This document shows, in pieces, positions 4,864 to 58,178 of a stretch of 64,000 nt of DNA. Position 1 is the first letter of the stretch, and each line of letters starts with the position of its first letter. This DNA comes from Gammaproteobacteria bacterium. GTDB taxonomy: Bacteria > Pseudomonadota > Gammaproteobacteria > Steroidobacterales > SZUA-146. The notes beneath the pieces are model-generated. The model did not search any database. It was given only the letters and a program-made list of their open reading frames with translations, and was not told the DNA's origin. A program made the position numbers and the translations under genes. The stretch spans positions 17,351 through 81,350 of the forward strand of contig JBGCFV010000047.1 of NCBI GenBank assembly GCA_045107075.1, given 5' to 3'.

Positions 4864-5475
4864 TCAGAAGTCTGCTGTTTCTTTAAACTTAAAGCGTACG
4901 GTAATACTCTGAACGCCATCAACGATCTTGATATCTCTCACCGCGCCGAAAAGCCCCTGCTCTTTTGACCGAAGCTTCATTTCTTTTGTAACCGCCGGGT
5001 CATCTGACAGAAAGATTTTGGTCGCCCACTGTCGCCCGAACTCCTCTGACTCAAGCGTAAAATGAAGATGAGCGCCTTCCCGGTGAAGGTGATCTGGAGC
5101 AGGTCGAATCGTCTTAAACTGAAACTTCCCGTCTACATCTGTTTGTATCCAACCCTGAAGCTCCCAGGTTGTAAATTCCCGGTCGTTGGTTCCCAATTCG
5201 AAACCGTCATGATCCCGGTGATACGCGTGCACGATCACGTCGCTCGCGGGCGTTCCATTTGGCTGTAAAACGGTGCCATTGATGACAAGCGGCGTGCCCG
5301 GCTCGTCTTCAGTCGCAATCGTACTGTGAGAGACCAACACGGCCGGTCGTCTCTCCTGCGCCTCAGCCCAGCTCTTTAGCCACGCCGGGTCTGCTTGAGC
5401 GTGGCTGCTCTCGATTACAAACGTAGCGCTCACCGTGATCAAAATGCTCAGCTGCAAGATGTGCCTGATAGTCAT
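4864..5475 (-). CDS. secreted intradiol ring-cleavage dioxygenase-fold protein
   Basis: Signal peptide (..TFVIESSHAQA). GTPLVINGTVLQPNGTPASDVIVHAYH, GWIQTDVDGKFQFKTIRP and GAHLHF match the conserved blocks of the intradiol dioxygenase C-terminal domain. Confidence 0.65.
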   Translation of the reverse strand: MTIRHILQLSILITVSATFVIESSHAQADPAWLKSWAEAQERRPAVLVSHSTIATEDEPGTPLVINGTVLQPNGTPASDVIVHAYHRDHDGFELGTNDREFTTWELQGWIQTDVDGKFQFKTIRPAPDHLHREGAHLHFTLESEEFGRQWATKIFLSDDPAVTKEMKLRSKEQGLFGAVRDIKIVDGVQSITVRFKFKETADF

Positions 5476-5784
5476 GTGCGCTCATCCTTTTTCGATTTTT
5501 CTAACTCTGGCTACCCATAAGTGTACGGTAACCATTCCGGTTAGCCCAATGTAGGATTGCGCAAATAGAGCAAGGCCGGGCAACAGCATTGCGGAGGTGG
5601 CCCAACCGTACATATGATGATCCGCGGACCTGGTTTAATCGCCTAGAACTAGTGTTTAACCGTTTTCGGAAACTTGACCGTAAAGCGCATTCATTTTGAA
5701 GGCATTCACACCGATAAATACGTTTTGCACTTAGATCTGTGGAAATTCCTTTGGTAAGTCGTACGGCTATGTTTTGCCGCTCGA

Positions 5785-6381
5785 CTATCTAGAGCCGCGC
5801 AACAGTCGAATTCCGCTCAGGGCAGAAAGAAAGAGTAGCGCCGCACCGGGTAGAGGGACCTTCGTAGTTTCATATTGAATGCCGACTTGAACAAAATCTT
5901 GAAAGTTGTCTTGATTTGCTACGAACTCGTCATTTTGAATTAACACATGGAAGCCACCGCTCAGTAGCAACTCGTCCAGTAAAAACTGCTCCACCTCAAA
6001 TTCAAACGAGATCATGACATCGAGTAGCGGATCGGTGAACAGAAAATCAAAGTTAAGTAAATTGAGGCCTTCAATTGTGTCATCTCTTACGCCTATAGAG
6101 GTTAACTCAATCGTTCCGGGAATAGATTCAAAGCTTAAATTCGCTTTTTCCCCAAACGGCTGCGTGTAATCACCGCGTGCAACAAATGTGAGCAACGCAC
6201 CGCTTCCGTCACTCTCGGGCAGGTCTGAGAACTTGATATCAAAAAACTGGCCGTCCTCGTCTATGTTTTCTGTCGCCTCGTAAGAAAACGTTGACGCTTC
6301 AACCTTACCCGGAGCTACCCAGCAGATAGCGAGAGTAACGAGAACAAGAATGGATAGCGAAAGAGTGTATTTGTGAGTCAT
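5785..6381 (-). CDS. secreted protein with VPLPA/PEP-CTERM-type sorting tail
   Basis: N-terminal signal peptide. The C-terminus KVPLPGAALLFLSALSGIRLLRGSR* has the motif, hydrophobic helix and basic cluster that define exosortase substrates. Confidence 0.6.
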   Translation of the reverse strand: MTHKYTLSLSILVLVTLAICWVAPGKVEASTFSYEATENIDEDGQFFDIKFSDLPESDGSGALLTFVARGDYTQPFGEKANLSFESIPGTIELTSIGVRDDTIEGLNLLNFDFLFTDPLLDVMISFEFEVEQFLLDELLLSGGFHVLIQNDEFVANQDNFQDFVQVGIQYETTKVPLPGAALLFLSALSGIRLLRGSR

Positions 6382-6559
6382 GTGAAATCCTTCTGCTTAT
6401 TATTTTATGTAGATTGTACTGATCTAATTCAAAGATCAACTGCCTTCTTTTTTAATCTTGACAGCTCAATTTCAAAACGTTCGTATATGCCATTCAGCAG
6501 ACCTGAGCAGGATCGAACTCTTTAATATTAGGCCAGTGAAACACCCGCACGATACGTCA

Positions 6560-6596
6560 AACGATTCAAAAGAACCGGCCAGCAAATGCTGGCCGG
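6560..6596 (-). terminator. rho-independent terminator candidate after the 1330-aa gene
   Basis: Stem CCGGCCAGC (6575-6583) pairs with GCTGGCCGG (6588-6596) around loop AAAT. On the minus strand it is followed by TTCTTTTGAATCGTTTG. Confidence 0.5.
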
Positions 6597-6608
6597 CGTC
6601 CTTAGGTG

Positions 6609-9600
6609 TTAAGTCCCACAACTCGTGTTGAGTGCGCTTGGACCAGGCGGGTTCAAGAAACGCGACTGGAACGGCGCAATGTCGATAAAGTTAACCACAC
6701 CGTCGCCATTGATATCTGTATCAAGATCACCGGTAGACAGGAAGTCTCCGGTGAGTATCGCAAGGTCAACGAAGTTGACGATGCAGTCGTTGCTGAAGTC
6801 AAAATCGCACACGTTGCCGATACCGTCACCGTTTGAGTCACGTTGATCAGCGTTTGCGTCTAACTGACAGTTGTCGAGCGTGTCAGTGATACCGTCTGAA
6901 TCATTGTCCCCTACCGTTAACCACTCAAAGCTAACCGATGTTTGTAAGCCGCTTGACCCGGTAGTGGCGGTAAGAGTGACTGTATACGTACCACCAAGAC
7001 CCGCGGTGGCACCCGATATAACGCCTGTGTTTGCGTTGATGCTCAGGCCCGCTGGTAAACCGTCAGCGACGTATGAAATGGCGCCCGAGTTGTTGTCGCG
7101 AGCTGTAACCGCGACATTAACCACATCGCCCACGTTGTTTTGCTGCGTACCCGGGTTCAGCACGTACGGCGGGAAGTTTCCATTGGGCGCGGAAGCGGCC
7201 GGCTCGCTATCGTCAATTTGCAACAGATAGCTGGCCAGGTTATCGAGGTCGCTGGCGCCGAGACTTGTGACGTCTATGCCAACCGTAGCCTCGTTAGTGT
7301 GAGCGAGTATGGCTTGTTGCACGGTGGCTGCTGAACCGTCGTGCAGGTAAGGCGCACCGTGCCAGAGTCCGCGCAGCGTTGGTGTATCAAGCCCCCCATC
7401 CACCAACGGCGTTCCGAGGCGCCCACCTGTATCGGCGTCAACGGTTCCAACATTGTGGAAGAATCCGCCCAATGGGCTGTCGGTGAACTCGCTGTTCGCG
7501 TGGCAACGACTACAGTTAGAACTCGCGAACAACGCTTGTCCGGCCTGACCGTCTGTGGTCAGGTTGCCATTGCTGGCTCGATTTGGGCTGTCGCCCACCG
7601 AGTTCAGCGTAGCCGTGTAGCCAGCCAGAGCGTCTAGGTCGACGTTCAAACCACTCTTCGGCACACCCAGCGTGTCAGATGTCAGGGCAAAGTCCGCGTT
7701 GGAAAGCAAGCCTGTACCATCGAATACGCCACGAATGTCGTTTTCGAAATCGTGAATCTCGTCGAAGTTAGCCGTCCAGTGTACGTTGCCGTGAGCAATA
7801 CCACCGCGACCACGCAGGTCGATAGTGTTGCGCAAGCCTTCGCCGCCGTCGGAGAAATCCCACGTGCGACCATCGTGACCTGCATCGTCGTGACACGTAG
7901 CGCACGAGATATATGCTTGAGAACTCAGACGTGAATCAAACGCATCGAAGAACAGCTTCTTACCGGTCAGCACAAACGGGTTGAGCGTTTCGGCGACAAC
8001 GGTCGCTACTTCGGCATCCAGCGAAATGCTGTTTTCGATACCCTGCATTAAATTGCTGGCATCGTAGACTCCGACCGTGCGGTCAAGATAGTTATGCACG
8101 TACAGAAGCTCACCGTCAGGCGACAGCGCAATACCGCGCGGCGCAGTTCCGGCTGTTCGCGTCACAATAATTTGATTGGCGTATACGTCGAGCACGTGAA
8201 TGGAACGACTGCCCTCGTGAACCACGTACAAGTGGTTTCCGTTTGGACCAAACAGAGCCGCCGTGGGCTGGCTGTTGTCGTCGAAGTCAAAGCGTTCTTC
8301 TACCAACTCCTGCTGAGCCGTCATGTCCAGACGCGCCAGCAGACTTCTGACCAAGCGGTCGTGCTCGCGAGGGTTTCCGTCGCGGAACGAACCGCGATAG
8401 ATGTTGCTGATGTTGGAAGGCACAACGCCTACGGTTGCGTCCGGAGATAAAGCGGCACCCATTACGTAGTTTGGAACACCTCGCGATGAATCCTGCGTAT
8501 CAATTTCATCGTTGTACGCCAGCACCATCGTATTCAGAACGGTCATACCGCCGGTATCCACTCTCGCCACTTCACCACCGCCACCGGTCGTTACGTTACG
8601 AGTGCTTTCGCCGGGAACCGGAGCCGTAATAAAGCGCGACACATACAGCTCGCTGCCGTCGGCGTTGAGCGCCAAATCGCGAGGTCTGAAATCAAGTGCG
8701 AGCGAAGAGTCAATCTGGTTCAGTGCCAGATTAATTTTGACGACACGTTGCTCGGCGAGCAGAGAGACGTAGGCAGCCGTGCCGTCGCTGTTAACCACAA
8801 TCGAATGCGGGCTGGCACCGTAGTCGAACGACATCACCGTCGAGACTGCGAACGTGTTTGTATTGATTTCGGAGATAGAGTGCGAATCGCGGTTAATTGC
8901 CCACAGCGTGTTGACATCAATTTGAGCAATACGCGTTGGATTATCTCCTACACTGATTTCCTGCAAGAACAACTTATTTGGAACGTTAATGGCCGTAACC
9001 GAATCGTTGTCAGTGTTTACAGTCCAAACCAAATCGTCAGCACCTGCACGCTCTTGATACAAAATAGTGCTGGATGAAACGGGCTTCGTTGCCGATAACG
9101 GTGCATGCACGTTCTGGAAGAAAATAAACTGATCAGAGCCAACCGTGTCGGTCAGCGTAACCGTAACCTGGTAGCGGCCAGGTTCTGCAAAGGTATACTC
9201 GAGCGTAGGATCGGTGCCGGTAAACTCTTTACCACCATCACTAATACTCCACGAGAACTCGGGGGCTACCCCACCTGTGACAGTGACTTCCATTGTGCCA
9301 GCAACGCCCGCTTCGAGAGTAACCGGGACAATTCCACTGAATTCAACAATCGCTGGTGCTGCGTCGTTAATGTAAATTGCGTAACGACCTTCGTGAGCGA
9401 AAACCAAATCCTGGTTACCGTCAATGTTAACGTCGGTAATCACAACGTCGTAGGATTCTTCTACTCGCCACTCCGGGTCCGCAAAGACGTCAAAGTTGCC
9501 TGAGAAATTGCCCGTGGTGATAACCATTTCATTCAATTCATTCCGCGGATCTGGATTCAAACCCGTACCCAGCATTTCAATACTGGACATGATGTAGTCA

Positions 9601-43799: not shown

Positions 43800-46115
43800 T
43801 TAGTCCAGCGTTTGTGGCACACACTCTGCAATGCCGCTAGGCCCGGGTGGTTGAAACACAAGCTCCGACAAACGAGCCAGATCCAGAAAATTGACGGTCA
43901 GGTCGCCGGTTAAATCGATAACGCCATCGAGCTCAAGAAACGCTTCGCCTAACAAAAACACATCCAGAAAATTAACCGTACAGTCACCGTTGTAGTCGCC
44001 GTCACAGGCATTACCAAAGCCGTCGCCGTCGGCGTCCGTTTGATCCGGATTTGATACATCGACACAGTTATCAAGGCCATCCTGAACGTCGTCTTCATCC
44101 CGATCAGCGAGGAGCAGTGATGGGGATGCCACTGAAGACAGGTTCCCCGAACCGTTATCAAGACTGTACGCCATGGCCACATTTTCGAACTCGCAGCCTT
44201 GTGGAATCTCCGTTAGCACCAGCTTGCTGCCCGCTACCAGCTCACCGTCTACGCGAAACGCGTTAACACCGCAAATTAAAGTGATGTCCTTTAGCGTTCC
44301 TTCCAACCCCGAATCGATTTCCAGATACAGCTTGCCAGGACTGTGATAAACGTCTGTGCAAGTCGGACAAAACTGCCCTTCTGGCTGACCGTCTGTCCAA
44401 GGTGTCGCCTGCAAACCGAAGTACTGCGACTGGGGACACGGGTTGTCAATATTGGTGCCTGGCTCATAGTTCAGCACGTAGCCTGTACGACAATCGTCGA
44501 ACGCTTCCTGCGAGGTAAACATATCGAGAGCGACCGTGCTGGCTCCCGCAAATAATGAAACAAGCTCAACCTCTGATACGCCGGGCCGAACGTCGTCAGG
44601 AAGAGCGCAATTAAAATCTGGGCAAGGGCCTGCCGTTAAGCTTGTGCACACTTTATCGACTGCACCACAAATACTGATGCGGCGAACTTCGTCGGTGCAC
44701 TCGGATTGTGTTGTATTGCAAAATGCAGCGCTACGACCAAGGTCGACTCCCGAACTATAAAGCTCCTGCATAATCTGGTGCGGGCTTGCGTTGTTCGCGA
44801 TTGTCCACGCCGCGGCGGCGGCCGACGCAACCACCACGCTACCGACTGAACTACCGGTCAATATTTGCGTGGGGAATGGCGTGGCACCCTCATTTACTGG
44901 CGCTACGGCGTGGTCACCAAACGCCGTCAACCTCGGTTCACCCCCCGGCCGGGTTTCCGCTGCCGCCCCGGTTTCGTCAACGGAACTAACGGCGTAAATT
45001 AATGGCCGGTAAGAGCCTGCAATGGTTAACGGGTCGGGCGTGAAACCAAACAGGTTATTGCACATAACGGCATCAGGAGCAGTTACGTCTTCCCAGCCAC
45101 CCGGCAGTATTGGCCCAGTCATAGCCGTTGGCCCGGTGACACGGTTACCGGCTGCTGCAATCACCAGTGCGCCACGACAGGACGCGTAGTTCAGAGCGCG
45201 ATACACTGCCTGAACGGAAACCCGGCTGCTATTGATCGGGTCGTCGTCACCATAAAACGAGTCCCACCCCAAGGAAAGATTGATCACCAGCTTGTTCACG
45301 GAGGCGGCACGCCAGTTCTCGACCTCTGTATAAATAGCGGTAGCCAGCTGACCGATCGTGCCCGCATACCCCCCCTGACTTGGGTCAATGCAAAACCCCG
45401 TATTACTGCCGCACCGCTGCATCGGCAGTGCCAGCTGAGAACGCAACTGAACCGGACAAGGACCTATCGTGGGGCAAATGCTATCGCGCACAATATTAAG
45501 CAACGTAAAGCCGTGAGAGGATACTCCGGAGCCGTTACGGTCTTGATTAAACCCGGTGGGCTCGCTATCCAGAATGGAGAGACGAACGTTTTGCGGACCA
45601 ACCGGCAGCGCGCCGAATGATCCAATTTGCTCCAGAAAAAACTCGCGAAATCCCTCCCACATAAGATTGGCACTATCGCTCGCCATAGGAGCTAGCGACG
45701 CAGAGTCACGATTTAGCTGTGTCAAACATTGGTCAAAGCCTGGATCAACCGAGCACAAACGGTTGGTTAGAGGAGCCGAGTTAGGGTTGGTCACATTGCT
45801 CTCGAACACGCAGTAGTTTGACAGTCCTGTTTGAAACGGTATTTCCGCGTTGTCGAAAAGACGCTGACTGGTCCAGCCCGGAATATCGTCCGGACACGGC
45901 TGCCCGGCGGTTTGGCCTACATATCGCCACGCAGTGTCGGCCGAATTCGGCTGCAGGCAGGCATCGGTCGGCGGTGACAAATTATCGCTACTGCCACAGG
46001 TAATTGATTGCCTCGCCCGACTACTCTCTGCCTCGGCATGAGCAACAGCACTCCAACAGCACACCGTAAACATACACGTAACAAGTGTCAGTAATTGTGT
46101 GATCATCCGTTGCAT
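43800..46115 (-). CDS. exported divergent subtilase (S8-like) with TSP3/dockerin-like cassette
   Basis: Signal peptide (..WSAVAHAEA). The blocks come in subtilase order: LSILDSEP (Asp), SSHGFTLLNIV (His), GALVIAAAGN (oxyanion Asn), LTGSSVGSVVVASAAAAAW (Ser). All diverge from the PROSITE patterns. The C-terminus is DRDEDDVQDGLDNC..DADGDGFGNACD..DLTGDLTVNFLDLARLSELVFQPPGPS. AAGGAG lies 7 nt upstream of the ATG. Confidence 0.6.
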   Translation of the reverse strand: MQRMITQLLTLVTCMFTVCCWSAVAHAEAESSRARQSITCGSSDNLSPPTDACLQPNSADTAWRYVGQTAGQPCPDDIPGWTSQRLFDNAEIPFQTGLSNYCVFESNVTNPNSAPLTNRLCSVDPGFDQCLTQLNRDSASLAPMASDSANLMWEGFREFFLEQIGSFGALPVGPQNVRLSILDSEPTGFNQDRNGSGVSSHGFTLLNIVRDSICPTIGPCPVQLRSQLALPMQRCGSNTGFCIDPSQGGYAGTIGQLATAIYTEVENWRAASVNKLVINLSLGWDSFYGDDDPINSSRVSVQAVYRALNYASCRGALVIAAAGNRVTGPTAMTGPILPGGWEDVTAPDAVMCNNLFGFTPDPLTIAGSYRPLIYAVSSVDETGAAAETRPGGEPRLTAFGDHAVAPVNEGATPFPTQILTGSSVGSVVVASAAAAAWTIANNASPHQIMQELYSSGVDLGRSAAFCNTTQSECTDEVRRISICGAVDKVCTSLTAGPCPDFNCALPDDVRPGVSEVELVSLFAGASTVALDMFTSQEAFDDCRTGYVLNYEPGTNIDNPCPQSQYFGLQATPWTDGQPEGQFCPTCTDVYHSPGKLYLEIDSGLEGTLKDITLICGVNAFRVDGELVAGSKLVLTEIPQGCEFENVAMAYSLDNGSGNLSSVASPSLLLADRDEDDVQDGLDNCVDVSNPDQTDADGDGFGNACDGDYNGDCTVNFLDVFLLGEAFLELDGVIDLTGDLTVNFLDLARLSELVFQPPGPSGIAECVPQTLD

Positions 46116-46136: not shown

Positions 46137-48836
46137 CTACCGCGAAATTAACCGGTAAGCGGCCCAGTCTGCCTGTGGATGCGATTCGATTAACGCTATT
46201 TGTGCCAGCCGTAATGCATGCTCGGGCGCCTGACCACGGATCCAATGAGAGTAAAACTGCTCGATCACCCTATGCGCCATATCGTCACGAACCGGGCGTG
46301 AAGCCGCTAACACCTTCTGGCTTCCTGCCAGTAAAAACGCATTGGCCAGACTCATGCTTTGCGAGGCTGTGCTGGTGGCTTTGGCCGTTTCGCAACCCGA
46401 CAACACGACCAGAGGCGGTGAGTGTTCCAGCGTTAACACATCAGAAATTCCCAAGCCGGAATCTGACCCGAGTTTAAGCTCGCTTCCCCAACCGTATTCA
46501 CCGGCAAACCGTGCGTGCCCCGCAAAGTGAAAAAGATCGCTACGCTGTATGTTCTCTAGCACGCTGGAAAACTGAACCTGCTCGTCAACCAGCGTTTGAT
46601 AAGACCAGGCGAGAGAAGCGGTCAACGTATCTGCGACGTTATTTAGTTCACGACGTGCAGCGGCCAGGTCGCCGCCCGCATCGGCCACCAGTAGTGCGCG
46701 ATTACCTCGCGTTAAAGCGTTTCTTGAACTGGCAATATCCAGACCATAAACAACAGGAACCCGGGAAACCAATGGCTGACCTTTTACGCGAAGGGCATGC
46801 ACATCAATTTCGGCCATAGCGCCCGACACCAACATTCGCAACAACGGCGCCGCCGATATGTCTTCGAAGACGGTTTCAAGCAGACACTCCATTTGTTCAG
46901 ACAGGTCGGTGCGCAGACAGCTCGGCTGCGTAACCCGAAGCGTGGTGCCGTCGTGCGTGAAAAGAGCCCAGGACGTTGGCAATTTCTGAACCAGCACCAA
47001 CAGCTCATTTACTCGAGGAGGTAACAGCGACGGAGACTCAATCTCTCTAAACACATCTGCAGCACCATCTAAAATCTGTCGCAGGCGAGTCTTTCGTGTT
47101 GCGTTTTCACCGGCGAGCTCTACCAGTTCATCGGCCGGCAGCATCCACGCGGACTCCACGGCCACTTCCAACTCTTTACGCAAATCATGATACTCACCAA
47201 GCAGTTGCTCCCACTTCCGTTGAGCAGGCTGCGACAACTGCTCAACGCTGTGAGCTACATTCACGGTATTGAGTGCGCGTCTGCGGGCTTCGCGTGCGAG
47301 CGCAAATGCTTCGTCGTAGCGCTGCACATCTAATAGTAGAGCAATATGTTCATTGGTCACGTTTGAGCGTGCCGTTAGCAAAGCCTCCCTGCCTTGATCT
47401 ATCGGAATTGATGGCAAAACATCGAGCAGTAACCAGTCAGCCTCCATGTACGCGTTAAGCGCCGCCTCCCTATCGCCGGTCGCCGCATAAGTACGTGCGT
47501 GTCCTGCTAAAGCACGCCACTGGGCCTGATGAGAAAGCGTCGCTTTGGCGAGCAGCTGAAGCTCATCGTATTTTCTGTGGGCCAGCTCAAAGTCGCCACG
47601 GTCGAGTGCAATGCGAGCTTCGATGTCCAGTAGCCACAGCGCGCTACGCAGATGCATTGCGTTCGTGTCGCGGGCTTTTTCTATCCACCGCTGCGCACCA
47701 GAAAGATCGTTGGCGTGCCACCGCGCCAAGGCAAGATTGGTTCGGGTATTTATAACGACTGTTGGGCCACATTTCTTCTGAGCCAACTCATCTGCTTTGA
47801 CTAGAAGGTCGGTAGGATCCTCGGAACTCCTACCAGCCTCCAATAGCAGAAGAGCTGCCCAACCCATGTTGGTGAGCGCAAGCGAATGTTCACATGGACG
47901 TATATCGTCAGGCAGCGAACTCCAACGAGACAAATAGGCTAGTGCTTCCTGGCCACGCCCCACTCGCTGCAACTGTACGGCGAGTAACAGTTCGGCGTAC
48001 AACCGCTGCGCCGCCGTACCGGTTCGTTGCGCCTGCAAGGCGGCCTCGTTCAGCCGCGTCAGCGCTGTTCGAGTATTGCTGGTGTTGTAAGCCAGTAAAC
48101 CAAAAAAATAATTCAGGTTATACGCGCTGTCTGCATCGAAGAGCGCGGGTGCTACCGTGTCATTCAAGACCTCGCGTGCTCGCTTGAAATCGCCCTTACT
48201 CATCAGGGTGTAAACAATAACCGTTGACGTGCGCAAGGCATCAGAGTGTTTGCCAGCCTTCATGTCGGCCGCAACGGATTGCGACAGCAGCTCTTCGGCT
48301 TTAGCAATATGACCCAGTCGGCGTTGAGCCTGGCCTAGCAGTCGTAACGCGGCGCCTGCCCAGTGCGGATCAATTGACGACATCGAAGTGTTAAGCAGAA
48401 GAATAGACTCTTCAAGCTTCCCTTCCCGATTCAGTGTTCGGGCGGTTTCAAGCATCTTAGGCCGCGTATTGGACTCAAGTTTCAACGCTGCCGTGCGTAA
48501 ACCGTCGCTAAAACTCAGCGTTGAAACTCCTTTGGGAACGTCGAGTTTAAACCGGGTGCCCCCCAAAACTCTGAGCGTTGTAGCGTTTGATAGCGTAGAC
48601 AGACTCATCCTGTTGCCATCGAAGCCAAACGACACACTATCGCGCAGCCCATGCTCTACCCAGACCGTCAGTGTGCGGCTATCGTTGAGAGTACAGACGT
48701 TTTCCGCAGAAACCGAAGCGCAGCCACTGACCTCAACACGTAGCAGATTGTCGTCCGAAAAAGCCCACGGCATTGTTACAAGCCATAGACTCACTGCGAG
48801 TCTTCGGACTCCATTTTTTGTACGTAGATGACTCAT
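46137..48836 (-). CDS. exported TPR-CHAT domain protein (caspase-like protease fold)
   Basis: 899 aa. Signal-peptide-like N-terminus (RRLAVSLWLVTMPWAFSDD), a roughly 120-aa beta-rich region, then a long TPR array. The C-terminal CHAT domain has the dyad context FHFAGHARF (His codon 46515-46517) and LVVLSGCETAK (Cys codon 46392-46394). Confidence 0.8.
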   Translation of the reverse strand: MSHLRTKNGVRRLAVSLWLVTMPWAFSDDNLLRVEVSGCASVSAENVCTLNDSRTLTVWVEHGLRDSVSFGFDGNRMSLSTLSNATTLRVLGGTRFKLDVPKGVSTLSFSDGLRTAALKLESNTRPKMLETARTLNREGKLEESILLLNTSMSSIDPHWAGAALRLLGQAQRRLGHIAKAEELLSQSVAADMKAGKHSDALRTSTVIVYTLMSKGDFKRAREVLNDTVAPALFDADSAYNLNYFFGLLAYNTSNTRTALTRLNEAALQAQRTGTAAQRLYAELLLAVQLQRVGRGQEALAYLSRWSSLPDDIRPCEHSLALTNMGWAALLLLEAGRSSEDPTDLLVKADELAQKKCGPTVVINTRTNLALARWHANDLSGAQRWIEKARDTNAMHLRSALWLLDIEARIALDRGDFELAHRKYDELQLLAKATLSHQAQWRALAGHARTYAATGDREAALNAYMEADWLLLDVLPSIPIDQGREALLTARSNVTNEHIALLLDVQRYDEAFALAREARRRALNTVNVAHSVEQLSQPAQRKWEQLLGEYHDLRKELEVAVESAWMLPADELVELAGENATRKTRLRQILDGAADVFREIESPSLLPPRVNELLVLVQKLPTSWALFTHDGTTLRVTQPSCLRTDLSEQMECLLETVFEDISAAPLLRMLVSGAMAEIDVHALRVKGQPLVSRVPVVYGLDIASSRNALTRGNRALLVADAGGDLAAARRELNNVADTLTASLAWSYQTLVDEQVQFSSVLENIQRSDLFHFAGHARFAGEYGWGSELKLGSDSGLGISDVLTLEHSPPLVVLSGCETAKATSTASQSMSLANAFLLAGSQKVLAASRPVRDDMAHRVIEQFYSHWIRGQAPEHALRLAQIALIESHPQADWAAYRLISR

Positions 48837-52350: not shown

Positions 52351-53808
52351 TCAAACCGCAGTTGGTCGCTTGCTCGCGCTCACGGCGTTATGGGCCAGCT
52401 TGAGATCACGGACGAAGAGCTCGTATTCGAGCTGGGCGTTGGGTGAATTGCCAAGGCGCAACAAGTAAGACGGATGCACGGTGACGATGATTTTGCGACC
52501 GTTATCGTCTTGAAGTAATCGCCCCCTAACGTCTTTGATTCTACAGGGGTGGCCCAGCAACGAGTGCGCAGCCGTCGCGCCCAGCGCAAGCGTAATATCA
52601 GGATCTATATGACTGCGTTCCTGAGTTAGCCACCAGCGGCAGTGTTCGATTTCAGAGCTGTCCGGTCGTACATGAAGTCGCTGCCGACCGCGTGCGCGAT
52701 ATTTGAAATGCTTGACGGCGTTGGTTAGATAAATATCATCTCGCTCAATATTAGCGGCATTAAAGGCGCGATTTAAAACTACACCCGCTGGACCGACAAA
52801 AGGCTTGCCCACAACGTCTTCCTGATCTCCCGGCTGCTCGCCCACAACCATAAGACGCGCGTTATCAGGACCTGCACCAACCACAGCTTGCGTTGCGCAT
52901 TGATGTAGCGAGCAACGTTCACAGGCCCTGATTTTGACAACGAGCTCTTGCAGGCTGCCGACGGGCTCTGGCTCTGGTGCCGTTCGTCGCTGCTGCGAAA
53001 CGAGGCGCTTTGCTTTTACGACAGAGGGTCGGGTGCCGGTTGGCGCTGCAAGTTGATATCGATGAGCATCACGTACCAGGTCGCCGATCAATCGACTCTC
53101 TGGCAAATTATGCCAATACTTCTTGGGCATCTCGGAACCCATCGCCTTCACTTTTAGTCGCGCAGGATTAAAAATGCTCGCATAGTATGTTCGCCACCAG
53201 GACTCAAGCGCGTCTGCGTCGGGACAGTCGGCGCGTGTGGCACCGTCGCCAAAACGTAGCGAGCACTTGTCCCAGTGCACACTCCGTGAGGGCGTCACAA
53301 TAGACCAGTGCATGCCGGCAAATCGTTTTTTGAAAAAAGGCGCTGTGAATTCGACTATGTGGTGATCAGGCTCAAACCACGCTATGAACACCTCACGCTG
53401 ACCGTCCGGCACCTGACGAAACCGCACAAACGCTTTCATCTTGTGTGCATCCCGACGAACAGCTTTTGCCATACGATGGAGCTGCCAGACATCGTCATCG
53501 CTTGCGTCGTCGAGAAGTCGCGGCGCGGACTGCAGTCTCCATAGTACTCGATACAGAAGTGCAAAACGCGCACCGTCACTGTGACATATAACTTGCTCTG
53601 CCAACGGTTGAAAAGCTCGAGGAACGCGCACTGAAACAGGCGTAACCGCCCCTTTCGTGAGCGGCTCTGCAAACAGGTCGCCATTTTCGAAAGGCAGCCG
53701 AAAGCTAACCTGGTCAGGCGAAATGCCCTGATTCAGCAGCTCACGCGCCGCGTCGCGCCAAGCCCGATAGTCGGCTGGTGACTCCAGCTCTACCTCAACG
53801 CCAGACAT
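52351..53808 (-). CDS. fusion of DUF4130/TIGR03915-type DNA-metabolism domain with a family-4/UdgX-like uracil-DNA glycosylase domain
   Basis: 485 aa. The C-terminal half has the Fe-S ligands CERCSLHQC, motif A GEQPGDQED and motif B HPSYLLR. The loop HFKYRARGRQRLHVRP has its His codon at 52672-52674. The start overlaps the stop of the radical SAM gene by 1 nt. Confidence 0.8.
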   Translation of the reverse strand: MSGVEVELESPADYRAWRDAARELLNQGISPDQVSFRLPFENGDLFAEPLTKGAVTPVSVRVPRAFQPLAEQVICHSDGARFALLYRVLWRLQSAPRLLDDASDDDVWQLHRMAKAVRRDAHKMKAFVRFRQVPDGQREVFIAWFEPDHHIVEFTAPFFKKRFAGMHWSIVTPSRSVHWDKCSLRFGDGATRADCPDADALESWWRTYYASIFNPARLKVKAMGSEMPKKYWHNLPESRLIGDLVRDAHRYQLAAPTGTRPSVVKAKRLVSQQRRTAPEPEPVGSLQELVVKIRACERCSLHQCATQAVVGAGPDNARLMVVGEQPGDQEDVVGKPFVGPAGVVLNRAFNAANIERDDIYLTNAVKHFKYRARGRQRLHVRPDSSEIEHCRWWLTQERSHIDPDITLALGATAAHSLLGHPCRIKDVRGRLLQDDNGRKIIVTVHPSYLLRLGNSPNAQLEYELFVRDLKLAHNAVSASKRPTAV

Positions 53809-55064
53809 TACTCAAACAGACTACGCTGCACCGGAGGTGGGGCTAACTGCTGACGTAACGTGGCCTGCTCAAGTAGCTTCGTAGGACGCCAATCGGGGGT
53901 GACAACGAACGGTCGCAATCGATGAACAGACGTGGTTAAGCGCGCAAGATCGGTAAGTCGCAGCGCATGAACGCGCCTGGCCTTGAGCACGGCTGCTACG
54001 CCGCGAGTACCGAGCCCCGGAATGCGCAATAACGTTTCTTTGGGTGCCTTGTTGATATCGACCGGGAAGTCCTGTCGATTTCTTAACGCCCAGGCAAGCT
54101 TTGGGTCAATGGCTAAATCCAGCATACCCTCGCGCCCGCCAGACATGATTTCATCGAGATCAAACTGATAAAAACGCAATAGCCAGTCCGCCTGATAGAG
54201 CCGATGCTCTCGCTGCAACGGTGGTGGTTCCGGCGGCAGCTGCACGCTCGGATGAGGGGTCGGACTAAAGGCGCTGTAGTAAACACGCTTTAATTTGTAA
54301 CTCGAATACAAAGTTGTACTCGTGGCCAGAACTTTACGGTCGTCCGAATCGTCGGCGCCGATAATCATTTGGGTGCTCTGGCCGGTAGCCATAAAACCTT
54401 TCGGATTGCGGTGCCGACTACGCTCTGCCTTTTTCTCATCAATTCTCAGTCTGACGTCGGCCATTGCCGTTCGAATACGCCCGGCATCTTTTTCAGGCGC
54501 CAGATTTCGCAAACTGACACGGCTTGGCAGCTCAACGTTAATGGACAGACGGTCTGCGTAACGACCGGCCAAGTCGATTAATTCAGGCGCCGCATCCGGA
54601 ATCGTTTTTATATGGATATAGCCTTGAAACTGATGTGTGTCCCGCAGCTGCCGCGCCACCTCAACCATTTGCTGCATGGTGTAGTCAGGGCTCTTAATGA
54701 TGCCGGAAGACAGAAACAAACCCTCAATGTAATTGCGCTTATAAAAGTCGAGCGTAAGGTTGACCAGCTCATCAACGTTAAATCGGGCGCGACGTACGTC
54801 ACTTGAAATCCGGTTAACGCAGTACAGGCAGTCGTACTGACAGTAGTTAGTCAGCAGCACCTTCAAAAGAGAAATACAGCGACCATCGGGCGTATAGGAA
54901 TGGCAGATGCCGGTCCCGCCCGTCGAGCCGACGCCACCGGTTCGGGTGGAGTCTTTTCGCCCGGCTGCACTGGACGCACAAGAGGCGTCGTATTTCGCAG
55001 CATCGGCCAAGATAGCTAGTTTGTTTACGGTTTTCAGGTGAGTCATCGCGCTACGGTCCGGCAA
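53808..55064 (-). CDS. putative DNA modification/repair radical SAM protein (TIGR03916-like)
   Basis: 418 aa. CxxxCxxC radical-SAM cluster (CQYDCLYC) and a C-terminal helix-hairpin-helix (LLRIPGLGTRGVAAVLKARR). It is paired with the DUF4130-UDG gene, as described for this family. The start is TTG at 55064 or ATG at 55046. Confidence 0.85.
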   Translation of the reverse strand: MPDRSAMTHLKTVNKLAILADAAKYDASCASSAAGRKDSTRTGGVGSTGGTGICHSYTPDGRCISLLKVLLTNYCQYDCLYCVNRISSDVRRARFNVDELVNLTLDFYKRNYIEGLFLSSGIIKSPDYTMQQMVEVARQLRDTHQFQGYIHIKTIPDAAPELIDLAGRYADRLSINVELPSRVSLRNLAPEKDAGRIRTAMADVRLRIDEKKAERSRHRNPKGFMATGQSTQMIIGADDSDDRKVLATSTTLYSSYKLKRVYYSAFSPTPHPSVQLPPEPPPLQREHRLYQADWLLRFYQFDLDEIMSGGREGMLDLAIDPKLAWALRNRQDFPVDINKAPKETLLRIPGLGTRGVAAVLKARRVHALRLTDLARLTTSVHRLRPFVVTPDWRPTKLLEQATLRQQLAPPPVQRSLFE

Positions 55065-55077
55065 TTTAGACTCAATA

Positions 55078-55097
55078 TACTGTGTTTATATACAGTA
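55078..55097. promoter_or_regulatory. LexA (SOS) box upstream of the radical SAM / UDG operon
   Basis: TACTGTGTTTATATACAGTA fits the gammaproteobacterial consensus TACTGT-N8-ACAGTA in both conserved arms. It lies 14 nt upstream of the TTG start. Confidence 0.75.
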
Positions 55098-55136: not shown

Positions 55137-57374
55137 TTACACCACGCCCTCTGCGATCTCGCTCAGGTGGTCCATCTCGCGTTGGCGAGGACGCTGTTTT
55201 TCAGAGCGCTTGTCGTTGATCAACAACAACAGCTGAGCGGCTGCCTCGGCATCACAAAGCGCGCGGTGATGAGTCTCGAGCGATATGCCGTAGGCCTTGG
55301 TCAGGGCGGCAAGACTGTATGAGGCGTGCCCCGGATAGTGACGGCGCATACCCGCAACCGTGCAAAGACGAGCCATCTTGAAACGACGGCCTATGCGACG
55401 AAACTCTCTTCCAATAAATCCGTAGTCAAACGCAACGTTGTGGGCAACGAAAATAGCGTTTCCAAGAAAGTCAGCCAAGGCGTCAGCGATTTGCTCAAAG
55501 CGCGGAGCGCCGTCCACCATTGTTTGGGATATACCCGTTAAACGAGTGATCGCCGGCGGAACTGAGCGACCGGGGTTTAACAACGTTGAGAATTGGTCGA
55601 CTATTTTGCCGTTGACCACCTTCACTGCGCCAATTTCAGTTACGCGATGCTGGTCGCCTCGCCCTCCCGTCGTTTCAACATCCACGACAACATACGCCTG
55701 CCTGGGATCGAGCGTCCATTGGGTCGCTACAACTTCCGCCCGAAAACCAGCGTTGGTTAACTGCTGTAGTTTGGCGAGCTGATGGCGACGCAAACTGTCA
55801 CCTTCCGATTTGATTTCGACGAACTTTACCCCGTGATCATCGACTAACAGCAGGTCCGGATAGCCGGAACGCATCAACGGATAGTTCTTGCACATAAGCC
55901 GCAATATGTTTTCAACAGCCTGCAATGGCGCTTCTTCAACGAGCACAAAAAGCGCATCAAGCGTCGACTGCCGCCAACGAAACACTCCGTTTCTTGTACC
56001 GAATTTTTCGGTGGCCACTTTTAGTAACGTAAGCTTTAAACGCGCCCGGCTGTTAACTTGCGCCAAACGCTTATCGACGGCCGAAGTATACGAGGTGTAA
56101 AACAAGCCCGTTGCTAAACTCTGTGGCAACGTATCAAACGGAGAGTGGATCTCTGCCGTCCGATTTGAAAACAACATGTCCCAAAACACCATGCCAAACA
56201 ACATTCTCCAGAGCGCGTTTTCACAGTGATAAGCCCGCATACCTTTTTCGGCGAACCAGGCAACCGCGGCTTTTTCGGGAGAGCCGACGAACTGTTCGTC
56301 AATTTCAATCGTGGAGGCCGCCTTTAATACATCGGTTGTGGCCAGCGTTCTTTTGCCTTTAAATGTTCGGGCATACAGGTCTCGAGCAAACAGTGCTTCT
56401 TCGTCGTTTCGGGGCGTTTCCATGCAGCTCAAGAGACACGTACTGGCGCTGTCTCTGTCGCCCAATTTGAGCATCAGCCGAATAGCTCGCTCTGTGCAGC
56501 GGGTCGACTCGGCGTAGCGGTAGAGCTCGATTGCCCGTTTTAAGTCTTTTTGCTTTTCTTGAATAGAACCTAGTCGCCATGCGAGCCTGTCGCGTAGCTT
56601 CGCCGCGCCCGCTGAGACGGGTTCGGGCCATTGTCTTGCTTCACGAACCAAAATGTGGATGTCGCAGGACGATGGTGACTTCTGACGAACTTTTAACAAA
56701 CGTGACGCAAAGTAAAAGTGCTCTCTTGCGCCCTCTTCATCTTGAAATCTTGGTTCGTAGTCAGTTTTCAGGTCCGCAGGCTGAACAAGCCCCAAGTCGC
56801 GCAAGGCGAAGCTATCCATACCGTCCCGGGTTTTGCCAAAATACAAGAACATCAAATATTGCACTGTTGACGTTTTGCGCTGGACTATTAACCTTGACGG
56901 ATTGCACTGGCTCAGAAATGACTCTGGTTCACACGTTGCCAATGCCAGTTCAACAAGCTCGTTTTTCAGAATCGTTTTCGGCAGCCCCGCCGTCTTTAGA
57001 GACAGTATTCTGTGAATTTCGCTCTTGGTGAGCAATTTGAGCAGCTCGGAAAAGTGATGAGGTCCGGGTTCCGAAATAAAGCCGGCGCTTCGCAAGCAAG
57101 TCAACGGCTCGTTCAGCTTGCCAATTTCCGGATAGTTCAGCTTGGCACACGAGAACACGGTGCCCTTACGGTTTACAAGGCGGACATAAAGCGCTTGGGC
57201 CAATTCATCGAGCGCTTGAAACGAAGATAGGAAAGCTTGGTCAGCTACGCCTAAAACGTGTTCGTAGTGTTCCTCTACGAACTCGAGCATTTCGACAAAA
57301 TGGTCTCGGTAATAAAAAGGCTCTAGCTGCTTCCCGCGAGAGTATCGTGGTTTTAAGGACTGATTGAAGTTCAT
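55137..57374 (-). CDS. FAN1-like VRR-NUC nuclease fused to a DEDDh (DnaQ/epsilon-type) 3'-5' exonuclease
   Basis: 745 aa. The helical N-terminal roughly 490 aa are followed by a VRR-NUC PD-(D/E)xK core, GYPDLLLVDDHGVKFVEIKSEGDSLRRHQ (about 55705-55900). Exonuclease motifs follow (about 55137-55700): VVVDVETTG (ExoI), FVAHNVAFDYGF (ExoII), HRALCDAEAAA (ExoIII, DEDDh). Confidence 0.8.
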   Translation of the reverse strand: MNFNQSLKPRYSRGKQLEPFYYRDHFVEMLEFVEEHYEHVLGVADQAFLSSFQALDELAQALYVRLVNRKGTVFSCAKLNYPEIGKLNEPLTCLRSAGFISEPGPHHFSELLKLLTKSEIHRILSLKTAGLPKTILKNELVELALATCEPESFLSQCNPSRLIVQRKTSTVQYLMFLYFGKTRDGMDSFALRDLGLVQPADLKTDYEPRFQDEEGAREHFYFASRLLKVRQKSPSSCDIHILVREARQWPEPVSAGAAKLRDRLAWRLGSIQEKQKDLKRAIELYRYAESTRCTERAIRLMLKLGDRDSASTCLLSCMETPRNDEEALFARDLYARTFKGKRTLATTDVLKAASTIEIDEQFVGSPEKAAVAWFAEKGMRAYHCENALWRMLFGMVFWDMLFSNRTAEIHSPFDTLPQSLATGLFYTSYTSAVDKRLAQVNSRARLKLTLLKVATEKFGTRNGVFRWRQSTLDALFVLVEEAPLQAVENILRLMCKNYPLMRSGYPDLLLVDDHGVKFVEIKSEGDSLRRHQLAKLQQLTNAGFRAEVVATQWTLDPRQAYVVVDVETTGGRGDQHRVTEIGAVKVVNGKIVDQFSTLLNPGRSVPPAITRLTGISQTMVDGAPRFEQIADALADFLGNAIFVAHNVAFDYGFIGREFRRIGRRFKMARLCTVAGMRRHYPGHASYSLAALTKAYGISLETHHRALCDAEAAAQLLLLINDKRSEKQRPRQREMDHLSEIAEGVV

Positions 57375-57400
57375 CTGATGAGGCGCTCATAACGAACCTG

Positions 57401-57420
57401 TACTGTATATAAATACAGTA
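57401..57420. promoter_or_regulatory. LexA (SOS) box upstream of the VRR-NUC/exonuclease gene
   Basis: TACTGTATATAAATACAGTA is a near-perfect palindromic SOS box, 27 nt upstream of the ATG at 57374. Confidence 0.8.
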
Positions 57421-57429
57421 TCGCATGCA

Positions 57430-58178
57430 ATAGCAATGAATCTCAACAAATTTTTGAATGTGCGCGCTTTCGGCTGACTTGAACTCGGAAAACCTCTCGC
57501 ACTGTGCCGCCGCATCAACTCCGGCCATTTCCATCACGCTTGACCCGGCGGTCAAAGGTGTTTGGCGTGCGTGAACCAATACGTTTGCCGCATCAAATTT
57601 GCGGGCAACCAGCTGGGCTAACTTCGCCGCTTCGTAATCCAACTCGGCAAAGGCACCGTCTTTTTTCTTGCTTAGACCCAAGGCTGTAACGACCTTGTTC
57701 AACTCCAGGTGTTCGTCCTGAACAAACCACACGTGAACCGGTTAGCAGCGAACCAGCTCCCAGTCCGTATTGCTGTCAAGCCCGGCAGGTAGCTGTGTTC
57801 ACGCGACTGCTTAACGACCAGATCAGGTCCGGCGTCTTCAATTTTACGCAATATCGCTTCCGTTCTTGAGGAGTCCCAGCGCACGTCATGAAGGACTGTC
57901 ACACCCTTTGAGGCGAGCTCAAGAGCCATGTCGGCCATGCGTTTTCGGTTGCGGTTCATGACCTGCTTTTTGTCTTCTTCGAATTTGCTGTACGCTGAAA
58001 ACAAGTGCTGTTCCGATGACGTATCGTGCACGACGTGAAAGAGTTCTATCTCACACCCCATTGTCTTGGCCAAATCGAGCGCTCTCTTGATAGCGGGCGA
58101 ATTGAGCGGGGCTTCAAACGTGATCTGGTCGGCATTCAGAATGACCAGCACGCGTTCAAACAATGTCTGTTTAGACAA
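57430..58178 (-). pseudogene. tandem-domain universal stress protein (UspE-like), frameshifted, nonsense-mutated and 3'-truncated
   Basis: USP domain 1 is intact in ORF 57699-58178 up to ..VVKQSREHS. The conserved continuation LDSNTDWELVRC-[TAA at 57742-57744]-PVHVWFVQDE is in another frame, with a 1-nt shift near 57780-57790. Domain 2 (ORF 57241-57732) runs only about 95 aa (..SAHIQKFVEIH) before reading into the LexA box. The last roughly 70 aa of a USP fold are missing. Confidence 0.6.

Follow-up and report, generated by a model that had tools for sequence, protein, structure and literature searches.

FAN1 proteins have a 5'->3' incision activity that can unhook an interstrand cross-link, and to our knowledge the only characterised bacterial FAN1 is the standalone enzyme of Pseudomonas. 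VRR-Nuc was reportedly defined by Iyer et al. in 2006. In the P. aeruginosa protein (PaFAN1), roles in tracking the 3'-nicked strand have been assigned to individual residues, and the site that receives the 3'-nicked end is fully exposed, so that the 3' end could be extended into a flap (PMC4201288). The corresponding gene, PA1865, is damage-inducible and lies outside the known LexA, PrtR and AlpR regulons (PMC12796719). A gene for a DEAD_2 (XPD/DinG-type) helicase is a frequent partner of standalone FAN1 genes (PMC3424549), a pairing that we also found in Burkholderia. For another class of repair proteins, the fusions of an exonuclease to a GIY-YIG nuclease, LexA regulation has been predicted (PMC8565304).

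The gene described here is carried by the window, that is, the whole 64,000-nucleotide stretch of DNA that was analysed (Table 1). Its open reading frame starts with ATG and continues in a single frame with zero internal stops; the encoded protein contains GYPDLLLVDDHGVKFVEIKSEGDSLRRHQLAKLQ at aa 504-537, VVVDVETTG at aa 562-570, HNVAFDYGF at aa 645-653 and HRALCDAE at aa 703-710. Based on the profile and structural matches given below, the gene is an intact fusion of FAN1 and a predicted DnaQ-type 3'-5' exonuclease, which confirms the domain identities assigned in an original prediction made from the letters of the DNA; every motif quoted in that prediction sits where it had been placed. NCBI names the product "exonuclease domain-containing protein" and JGI names members of the fusion family "DNA polymerase III subunit epsilon"; both labels conceal the FAN1 part, and the annotation is corrected here. 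GC content is flat across the region (0.49-0.56), and a genomic island was rejected on this basis.

Table 1. Coordinates of the fusion gene, its domains and its predicted regulatory sites in the window.
Feature	Position (nt)	Strand	Details
FAN1-DnaQ exonuclease fusion gene	55137..57374	-	745 aa; complete; NCBI MFK8031411.1
FAN1 N-terminal (HTH) domain	57075..57317	-	aa 20-100; Pfam PF21315 4e-24
SAP-like helical segment	56910..57065	-	aa ~104-155; PaFAN1 alignment, Foldseek superposition
TPR helical domain	56355..56738	-	aa ~213-340; AF2 helix array, aligned to PaFAN1 TPR
VRR-nuc domain with helical-bundle insert	55707..56321	-	aa ~352-556; Pfam PF08774
Domain junction W-T-L-D-P-R-Q-A-Y-V-V-V-D	55680..55718	-	aa 553-565; without flexible linker
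DEDDh 3'-5' exonuclease domain	55227..55691	-	aa 562-716; Pfam PF00929
Predicted sigma-70 promoter	57417..57446	-	consensus scan, pattern match
LexA operator (predicted) TACTGTATATAAATACAGTA	57401..57420	.	19/20 vs E. coli consensus
Second LexA operator (predicted) TACTGTGTTTATATACAGTA	55078..55097	.	18/20 vs consensus

Pfam identified the two ends of the N-terminal module, with FAN1_HTH (PF21315) scoring 84.8 bits against a cut-off of 27 and VRR_NUC (PF08774) matching aa 451-551 at 8.8e-14 (52 bits against a cut-off of 23.8). The alignment to P. aeruginosa FAN1 (4r89; E 7e-31) runs end to end, pairing aa 18-556 with its residues 18-558, and Foldseek superposes the model on PaFAN1 over 565 columns (E 8e-24). 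The FANC_SAP profile scored 13 bits, under its cut-off of 23; the SAP-like segment nevertheless lies within the continuous PaFAN1 alignment and the Foldseek superposition, and the AF2 model predicts helices at aa 105-155. Pfam TPR matches were likewise weak and sub-threshold, and the AF2 model predicts a helix array at aa 213-338; the continuous alignment and the superposition with the TPR region of PaFAN1 show that a TPR domain is present between the NTD and the nuclease. The original prediction had called the N-terminal part FAN1-like, preceded by a helical region reminiscent of SAP and TPR. Its FAN1/VRR-NUC homology is borne out by the Pfam, 4r89 and Foldseek matches, and the objection that the region might have no such homology fails; the TPR assignment also held, the SAP assignment is tentative, with a place in the PaFAN1 alignment and a Pfam score below cut-off, and only the word "like" proved too weak, as by these matches the N-terminal part is a complete PaFAN1-type protein with predicted NTD, SAP, TPR and VRR-nuc.

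Residues with known roles are retained throughout this module. The predicted metal ligands E385, D507 and E520 and the predicted catalytic lysine K522 correspond to PaFAN1 E386, D507, E522 and K524 and are invariant in 87/87 fused representatives, a diverse set clustered at ≤50% identity. The predicted 3'-nicked-strand track (Y21, R65, R69, K70 and Y81, with numbering identical to that of PaFAN1) is invariant in alignment A2 and nearly invariant in the 87 fused representatives.

The C-terminal part was identified as RNase_T (PF00929; 2.1e-37, 129.6 bits against a cut-off of 24), and the DEDDh motifs of the original prediction were found where it had placed them. Exo I (D565/E567), Exo II (D650) and Exo III (H703/D708) are all invariant, and across both modules the nine predicted catalytic residues (E385, D507, E520, K522, D565, E567, D650, H703 and D708) do not vary among the 87 representatives. 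TIGR00573, which describes the epsilon/DEDDh family, scored 114 bits, above its cut-off of 71.5, whereas the equivalogs for replicative DnaQ failed (TIGR01406, 110 bits vs 222.7; PRK05711, 102 bits vs 196). With these scores under cut-off and the C-terminal alpha/clamp-binding segment missing, a replicative proofreader was rejected; thus the DnaQ-type family of the original prediction stands and its "proofreading" does not. DEDDh enzymes can also have RNA as a substrate.

Among solved structures, the closest relative of the exonuclease domain is that of S. aureus DinG (8zef), which is bound to ssDNA; aa 560-725 align with it at E 2e-26, and Foldseek gave an rmsd of 1.8 A over 168 columns, and a TM of 0.85 to epsilon. 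Overall, the domain is closest to exonuclease domains that are joined to DinG helicases or to GIY-YIG (Cho-like) nucleases. PRK07883 was the top NCBIfam match of the exonuclease domain (7.9e-55), albeit with a whole-protein score of 186 bits, far under the equivalog cut-off of 495.

Exactly 11 residues separate the equivalents of W553 and D565 in 87/87 fused representatives, and this fixed length speaks for a constrained geometry rather than a loose tether. The junction has a pLDDT of 82-96 in the AF2 model, and the pTM of 0.73 for the whole fusion protein gives a hint, and only a hint, of a defined arrangement between the modules. Since a metagenome-assembled genome is the source of the window, two genes could in principle have been joined by an artefact of assembly or by a frameshift; we give this practically no chance. 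Near nt 55700 the junction is free of any stop or frameshift and is conserved in more than 100 homologues, in agreement with the original view of a single gene; the fused architecture occurs in more than 120 close homologues and in ~112 of the 150 highest-ranking representatives (50% identity), including complete chromosomes and cultured isolates; and its junction length is identical in every full-length representative, so that conservation across genomes refutes a chimera. The fused proteins make up a single clade, and standalone FAN1 falls outside it. Apparent "solo" proteins within this clade are truncated or frameshifted fragments, with the exception of P0227 (540 aa), which looks like a genuine standalone.

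Mean pairwise identity among the fused proteins is 76% for the exonuclease, the most conserved part, compared with 46-60% for the FAN1 domains; the exonuclease is therefore under selection and is no decaying appendage. Conservation is lowest in the C-terminal tail (38% identity), which most homologues lack. The NTD and SAP region is all of FAN1 that P0242 and P0243, two independent short proteins with 38% identity between them, join to the same exonuclease. Because these proteins keep only NTD and SAP, the binder of the pre-nick duplex and of the 3' end, they link the exonuclease to the 3' end of the junction.

Related stretches were found in at least 593 cases across species genomes, and the full-length fusion was seen in the best 80 loci, with carriers that include Woeseiaceae, Alteromonadales, Bradyrhizobium, Hyphomonadaceae and Bdellovibrionota. 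The remark that known bacterial FAN1 homologues lack the exonuclease holds for Pseudomonas; the fusion itself is a large family in hundreds of bacterial species of several phyla and no rarity of the source genome. Our search of the full-text literature did not find FAN1/VRR-NUC linked to a DnaQ/DEDDh fusion or to LexA, and although an earlier mention is possible, the fusion has apparently never been studied.

The distribution is patchy, with copies on a conjugative Bradyrhizobium plasmid; VRR-Nuc domains act as T6SS toxins (PMC9635880), and the exonuclease domain matches PADLOC models (PDC-S48, Cas-associated DEDDh). These observations would fit a nuclease of a conflict system, an anti-phage defence effector or toxin and no repair enzyme, which we regard as very improbable. 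The PADLOC matches are confined to the generic exonuclease domain, and membership of a defence system was rejected on that basis; immunity, PAAR, secretion and defence partners are not conserved nearby; and the full DNA-junction-binding architecture of PaFAN1, together with predicted LexA control, points to repair. Zero fused homologues were found among 2.9 million viral contigs, a result that speaks against a conflict system and on which an origin in phage was also rejected.

A conserved operon partner was rejected after three analyses. TBLASTN with the window's radical-SAM, UdgX and Usp neighbours gave no match in 80 related loci, all-against-all clustering of flanking ORFs recovered just local Woeseiaceae synteny (≤12/80 loci), and the neighbourhoods taken from RefSeq for Bradyrhizobium and Pseudoalteromonas are unrelated. 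No pointer to a pathway was found among these neighbours.

Two predicted LexA operators occur in the window. The first, TACTGTATATAAATACAGTA, precedes the ATG by 26 nt and agrees with TACTGTATATATATACAGTA at 19/20 positions; this consensus is that of E. coli, and we inferred the organism's own motif from the two boxes because a lexA gene was not found in the 64-kb window (with E. coli LexA as query). The second, TACTGTGTTTATATACAGTA, lies outside the gene, in the 72-bp gap between its stop codon and the downstream radical-SAM/UdgX operon, whose genes match TIGR03916 and TIGR03915+TIGR03914. Apart from these two boxes (57401-57420 and 55078-55097), the 64 kb contains no CTGT-N8-ACAG site and no 20-mer that scores ≥14/20. 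The consensus scan placed a predicted -35 (TTGAGA, 57446-57441) and, after an 18-nt spacer, a TG-extended -10 (GATACT, 57422-57417) in front of the fusion gene. The claim of a strong LexA box is thereby upheld: 57401-57420 is, as judged by pattern match, a near-consensus LexA operator within a predicted promoter.

Boxes appropriate to the lineage were also identified upstream of orthologues. An alpha-type box (GTTC-N7-GTTC) occurs at 10/13 alphaproteobacterial loci, 31-116 nt upstream or, at L057, at the predicted start (binomial P ~2e-18 against the background rate in those loci), and also upstream of the fused gene on a B. japonicum plasmid. Gamma-type boxes precede the orthologues in Aliiglaciecola, Arenicella and three Pseudoalteromonas, and the standalone FAN1-helicase operon of Burkholderia arboris has a box 30 nt upstream. 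Upstream of the orthologues in Woeseiaceae (by sequence, the nearest relatives), Bdellovibrionota, Aliidiomarina and some Pseudoalteromonas, a LexA box was not found; nor was the Bdellovibrio-type box TTAC-N3-GTAA in Bdellovibrionota. Because Woeseiaceae and Bdellovibrionota are without a recognisable box, SOS control appears to be lineage-specific and no property of the whole family.

This absence, along with the extended -10-like TTTGCTACATTG motif that many Woeseiaceae orthologues carry instead and a chance expectation of 0.68 bare CTGT-N8-ACAG sites per window, would agree with a palindrome that is no functional operator and with a constitutive housekeeping flap/gap nuclease, as the Woeseiaceae orthologues appear to be. 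We consider this quite improbable, given that the full 20-mer agrees at 19/20 positions and overlaps the predicted -10 of the fusion gene, that boxes of two LexA-motif classes recur at orthologues, and that the sole other site in the 64 kb stands in front of an operon whose type is a reported SOS member (PMC8565304).

Taken together, the sequence and the predicted structure make it probable (roughly 0.6) that the protein is a DNA-damage-inducible, two-headed, structure-specific nuclease acting at one junction. LexA would repress the fusion gene, and DNA damage would lift the repression. The FAN1 module would then dock in a PaFAN1-like manner on a nick, gap, 5'-flap or fork junction, with NTD and SAP gripping the pre-nick duplex together with the nicked strand's 3' end, and with TPR and VRR-nuc gripping the post-nick duplex. 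The module would cut the 5' strand, a few nucleotides beyond the junction, and proceed 5'->3', and the tethered exonuclease would simultaneously trim that junction's 3' end or 3' flap. The product would be either a clean gap surrounding the lesion or, where a double flap was the substrate, a nick that can be ligated, and it would be ready for recombination or for translesion gap filling; the candidate lesion classes are cross-links, bulky adducts and flaps that SOS polymerases produce. As the original prediction suggested, we infer from sequence that the fusion may have a role in processing cross-links or flaps.

Conservation of the 3'-nicked-strand residues of PaFAN1 in the fusion supports the proposed processing of two strands at a junction. 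It is possible, and we suggest it only tentatively, that a previously unrecognised bacterial repair enzyme processes the ends of both strands at one junction: the FAN1 NTD may sense the 3' end of the junction and pass it to the rigidly attached exonuclease, and the VRR-nuc head may cut 5'->3' across the lesion.

The two activities could also be uncoordinated, with FAN1 delivering to sites of damage a general 3'-end editor that works in trans; it might, for instance, proofread or remove mismatches for SOS translesion polymerases, or clean blocked 3' termini. The exonuclease does belong to the epsilon/PolC proofreading family, and the gene stands in an SOS context, adjoining the UdgX/radical-SAM operon; SOS-regulated uracil-DNA glycosylases have been suggested to handle polymerase misincorporation (PMC8565304). 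However, such an editor seems unlikely, since the 11-residue junction argues for a constrained geometry, the poorly conserved and mostly absent tail offers no conserved clamp- or polymerase-binding segment, and a polymerase gene is not a conserved neighbour.

If, as tentatively suggested above, the ends of both strands are processed at one junction, a single SOS-induced polypeptide would both incise and resect the DNA surrounding an interstrand cross-link or stalled fork. On the same tentative reading, FAN1, XPD/DinG helicase and DnaQ exonuclease would be one bacterial repair module, linked by FAN1-DinG-type helicase operons, DinG-DnaQ fusions and the FAN1-DnaQ fusion seen here. An obligatory 3'-5' exonuclease partner in fixed geometry would limit the possible shape of bacterial FAN1 substrates, and recurrent predicted LexA control, with at least two operator classes, would connect FAN1 with the bacterial DNA-damage response. 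Some carriers are cultivable (Pseudoalteromonas, for example P. xiamenensis with WP_208845194.1, Bradyrhizobium and Aliidiomarina), and genetics is therefore feasible.

The closest described system is PaFAN1 (PA1865; PDB 4R89/4R8A/5Y7G), which shares with the fusion the domain order NTD, SAP (tentative in the fusion), TPR and VRR-nuc, the active-site and 3'-nicked-strand tracking residues, and the lack of a UBZ, at an identity of about 22-30%. Whereas PaFAN1 ends at residue 559, the fusion protein runs straight into a 190-aa DEDDh exonuclease, and whereas PA1865 lies outside the LexA regulon, the fusion gene has a near-perfect predicted LexA box. Standalone FAN1 genes often have the helicase gene as a neighbour; no such helicase adjoins the fused genes. 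Human FAN1 matches the fusion at E ~3e-17 over aa 364-548 (Foldseek E ~2e-21) and shares its SAP-TPR-VRR-nuc core and PD-(D/E)xK triad; however, Pfam gave no UBZ match in the fusion protein, which begins at the NTD like PaFAN1, and the fusion is without the FANCD2/PCNA/MLH1 recruitment context and has an extra 3'-5' exonuclease that no eukaryotic FAN1 is known to carry.

On the exonuclease side, the fusion resembles E. coli DnaQ (Pol III epsilon) in its DEDDh fold and motifs (TM ~0.85, E 1e-18) and differs from it in having no counterpart of epsilon's C-terminal segment, its own tail not being conserved. Gram-positive DinG (8ZEF; TIGR01407 dinG_rel), the best solved match at 35% identity, likewise carries an epsilon-like exonuclease on a DNA-repair protein, although in DinG the exonuclease is N-terminal and its partner an XPD-type helicase, whereas here it is C-terminal and its partner a FAN1 nuclease. 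The DEDD exonuclease-GIY-YIG (Cho-like) fusions (PRK07883; COG0847 in Bacteroidetes) have the same design of a repair endonuclease joined to a DnaQ-type exonuclease; their endonuclease is GIY-YIG/UvrC-like, whereas that of the fusion described here is FAN1.

The fusion gene is a single unbroken open reading frame that starts with ATG, and all of the motifs quoted in the original prediction were found at their expected places in its product. Pfam assigned three domains to this protein, each above the gathering score (see the table). In alignments against solved structures, residues 18-556 matched residues 18-558 (of 559) of the standalone P. aeruginosa FAN1 (PaFAN1; 4r89/5y7g) continuously (E 7e-31), and residues 560-725 matched the S. 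aureus DinG exonuclease domain (8zef; E 2e-26), with further matches to PolC exonuclease domains and Pol III epsilon. AlphaFold2, with 47 homologues as input, gave a model with mean pLDDT 85.4 and pTM 0.73. Foldseek analysis of this model against the PDB identified PaFAN1 as the top match (E 8e-24, 565 columns) and human FAN1 as the second; the C-terminal domain matched the DinG exonuclease domain with an rmsd of 1.8 Å and epsilon with a TM of about 0.85. Together, these alignments and models indicate that the N-terminal 556 residues are a complete bacterial FAN1, joined to a C-terminal 190-residue DEDDh exonuclease of the epsilon family. The exonuclease had been predicted as such, and the Pfam and structure matches agree; the predicted homology to FAN1 also held, but it extends beyond the VRR-NUC core to the whole of bacterial FAN1.

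Coordinates of features in the window and of domains in the fusion protein
Feature	Position	Strand	Remark
Fusion gene	55137-57374	-	745 aa
FAN1_HTH domain	aa 20-100		Pfam, 4e-24
VRR_NUC domain	aa 451-551		Pfam, 8.8e-14
RNase_T domain	aa 562-716		Pfam, 2.1e-37
LexA-type box TACTGTATATAAATACAGTA	57401-57420		
LexA-type box TACTGTGTTTATATACAGTA	55078-55097		
Second transcription unit	52351-55097	-	Directly downstream of fusion gene, own LexA box
Radical-SAM "DNA modification/repair" protein	53808-55064	-	TIGR03916
TIGR03915 + UdgX-family uracil-DNA-binding fusion	52351-53808	-	TIGR03915 match
uspE-like remnant	57375-58178	-	
Intact universal-stress domain of remnant	57699-58178		
TPR + CHAT (caspase-like protease) protein	46137-48836	-	899 aa
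ORF adjoining TPR + CHAT gene	43800-46115	-	771 aa, no Pfam match

In PaFAN1, the two-metal site consists of E386, D507, E522 and the main-chain carbonyl of V523, K524 contacts the scissile phosphate, and Y21, R65, R69, K70 and Y81 form the track for the 3'-nicked strand (Gwon et al., PMC4201288). The catalytic counterparts in the fusion protein are E385, D507, E520 and K522, the track residues are Y21, R65, R69, K70 and Y81, and the DEDDh residues are D565, E567, D650, H703 and D708; every one of these is unchanged across the 47-sequence alignment. At the nine catalytic positions there is also no substitution in any of the 87 full-length fused representatives, drawn from clusters at ≤50% identity. 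Mean pairwise identity in the 47-sequence alignment is highest in the exonuclease domain (76%), whereas that of the FAN1 domains is 46-60%. Judged by this conservation, both active sites look functional.

Within the first 15 residues, the fusion family keeps a short motif, (E/D)-F-D-Q-(T/S), in a segment predicted to be disordered (pLDDT below 50). This motif, which could be a protein-interaction peptide, is degenerate in the window's protein (NFNQS); in some family members it reads QT(H/N)WAP, loosely like the clamp-binding QTSMAF of epsilon.

An identical protein is present in NCBI on a 113.8-kb contig (MFK8031411.1, [quoted passage not shown]), and all 120 homologues among the matches listed (50-58% identity) share its three-domain Pfam architecture. 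When one genome per species was scanned, at least 593 related stretches were identified; the fusion is present in all of the best 80, with a few truncated at contig ends. Carriers among these 80 include Gammaproteobacteria (Woeseiaceae, Halieaceae, Arenicella, Pseudoalteromonas, Aliidiomarina, Aliiglaciecola and Pseudidiomarina), Alphaproteobacteria (Hyphomonadaceae, Neomegalonema, Asticcacaulis and Bradyrhizobium), Bdellovibrionota and one Akkermansiaceae MAG. HMMER was also run exhaustively over 1.84 billion representatives, and about 112 of the top 150 clusters were fused. The original prediction had allowed for an assembly fusion of two genes; however, the reading frame is unbroken, relatives share the architecture, and in 87/87 representatives exactly 11 residues separate the last tryptophan of FAN1 (W553) from the first aspartate of the exonuclease (D565), with high model confidence throughout the junction. 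These comparisons indicate a real, widespread gene fusion.

When a neighbour-joining tree was built from the FAN1 portion, the 87 fused proteins separated cleanly from a clade of 12 genuine standalone FAN1 proteins (about 545-580 aa). Nine apparently "solo" sequences are nested among the fused proteins; eight of them are fragments, either truncated or frameshifted, and the ninth (P0227, 540 aa) appears to be a real standalone protein. One old fusion event with constrained geometry would fit this pattern, and the occurrence of the fusion in several phyla suggests that horizontal transfer followed. Copies are carried by a conjugative Bradyrhizobium plasmid and by secondary replicons of Pseudoalteromonas; a search of 2.9 million viral contigs found none. 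On B. japonicum plasmid pS11L-1 (L083), the RefSeq orthologue is only 535 aa (7565-9169) and is overlapped by an antisense hypothetical protein; because the TBLASTN match (7001-9169) is unbroken from 7001, this annotation appears to cut off the FAN1 N-terminus.

The palindrome TACTGTATATAAATACAGTA matches the E. coli LexA consensus at 19/20 positions and lies 26 nt upstream of the ATG, bearing out the predicted LexA box. The scan of the fusion-gene strand found a single promoter-like site (TTGAGA, 18 nt, TG-extended GATACT), and the palindrome overlaps its -10. The 64-kb window contains one further such site, TACTGTGTTTATATACAGTA (18/20), between a TTGACA -35 and the gene start of the next downstream operon. 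The radical-SAM/UdgX gene pair of that operon is reported to be SOS-regulated in Verrucomicrobia, Alphaproteobacteria and Bacteroidetes (PMC8565304), so the operon can be read as an internal positive control for the host's operator motif; this unit adjoins the fusion gene in 0/80 related loci.

Among orthologues, 10/13 alphaproteobacterial loci have an alpha-type box (GTTC-N7-GTTC) 31-116 nt upstream or, in one locus (L057), on the predicted start (binomial P about 2e-18 against the background rate in the same loci); the B. japonicum plasmid orthologue has one too. In Aliiglaciecola, Arenicella and three Pseudoalteromonas, the gene is preceded by a gamma-type box, and no other 20-mer in the respective locus scores as well. 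Upstream scans found no LexA box in Bdellovibrionota or in the Woeseiaceae orthologues, which are closest by sequence; many of the latter have a conserved extended -10-like motif, TTTGCTACATTG, in its place. Conserved 10-80 nt upstream of the orthologue in twelve Woeseiaceae loci (L005, L008, L011, L020, L021, L023, L024, L026, L028, L030, L034 and L050), TTTG(C/A)TAC(A/G)TTG resembles an extended -10 (TGnTACATT). SOS control of the window's gene is well supported by these motifs, and it appears to recur across lineages without being universal in the family.

The apparently intergenic DNA upstream of the fusion gene's LexA box is a decayed uspE-like gene with one intact universal-stress domain; the reading then shifts frame and meets an in-frame stop (...TDWELVRC*PVHVWFVQDEH...), and the expected second domain is not recognisable, which suggests a pseudogene or assembly errors. 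The SOS genes are possibly an old insertion at this site; GC content around it gives no genomic-island signal. Elsewhere in the window, the TPR + CHAT gene and its 771-aa neighbour are followed by two more ORFs of about 275 aa each without matches; the 43800-48836 genes may form a conflict or signalling system that has nothing to do with the fusion gene.

PaFAN1 prefers 5' flaps and nicks, incising 3-5 nt past the junction and then onward 5'->3', and the 3' end at the nick is exposed, leaving room for its extension into a flap (PMC4201288). A 3'-5' exonuclease welded to FAN1 would be well placed to trim that end or a flap. In two "mini" proteins from the representative search, P0242 (353 aa) and P0243 (379 aa), the same exonuclease is joined directly to the NTD+SAP region of FAN1 alone, which is the part that grips the pre-nick duplex with its 3' end; they are 38% identical, and we count them as independent. 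Their architecture supports a tie between the exonuclease and the 3' end at the junction. Both come from Logan assemblies. From the PaFAN1 geometry and these proteins, we propose a damage-induced dual-polarity junction nuclease: expressed on DNA damage, its FAN1 head would cut and chew the 5' strand across the lesion and its DnaQ head would resect the 3' end, leaving a defined gap or a ligatable nick.

Hundreds of family members are deposited in databases, but the names given to them are generic or misleading ("exonuclease domain-containing protein," "DNA polymerase-3 subunit epsilon"); a full-text literature search of incomplete coverage identified no description of a FAN1-DnaQ fusion or of a bacterial FAN1 controlled by LexA. 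The fusion is a solid, testable lead on bacterial cross-link and flap repair, and no categorical surprise. By sequence, the protein belongs to the bacterial FAN1 family and is predicted to work like it, with every testable family feature present except the Pfam SAP model, which is below cut-off. The exonuclease groups with the epsilon-like DEDDh family; a replicative proofreader (DnaQ) was ruled out because the domain falls below the replicative equivalog cut-offs. The design has two precedents, in which a similar exonuclease is fused to a DinG helicase (8zef) or to a GIY-YIG (Cho-like) nuclease; for the GIY-YIG fusions, LexA regulation is predicted as well (PMC8565304). An extreme Cho-like form in the representative search, P0238 (1045 aa), has three tandem RNase_T domains followed by GIY-YIG and UVR motifs.

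Standalone FAN1 genes of Gammaproteobacteria are reported to be paired with DEAD_2 helicase genes (PMC3424549). A Vibrio standalone FAN1 locus (L085) had neither a LexA-type box nor the helicase. We confirmed one pair in the betaproteobacterium Burkholderia arboris (NZ_CP101525.1, about 4941-8962), in which a 564-aa standalone FAN1 is followed by a DEAD_2/Helicase_C_2 (XPD/DinG-type) ORF; a LexA-type CTGT-N8-ACAG box, CTGTACAAATGTACAG, lies 30 nt upstream, suggesting that SOS control may extend to unfused bacterial FAN1 operons. These pairwise fusion and operon links hint that FAN1, XPD/DinG-type helicases and DnaQ-type exonucleases share a pathway.
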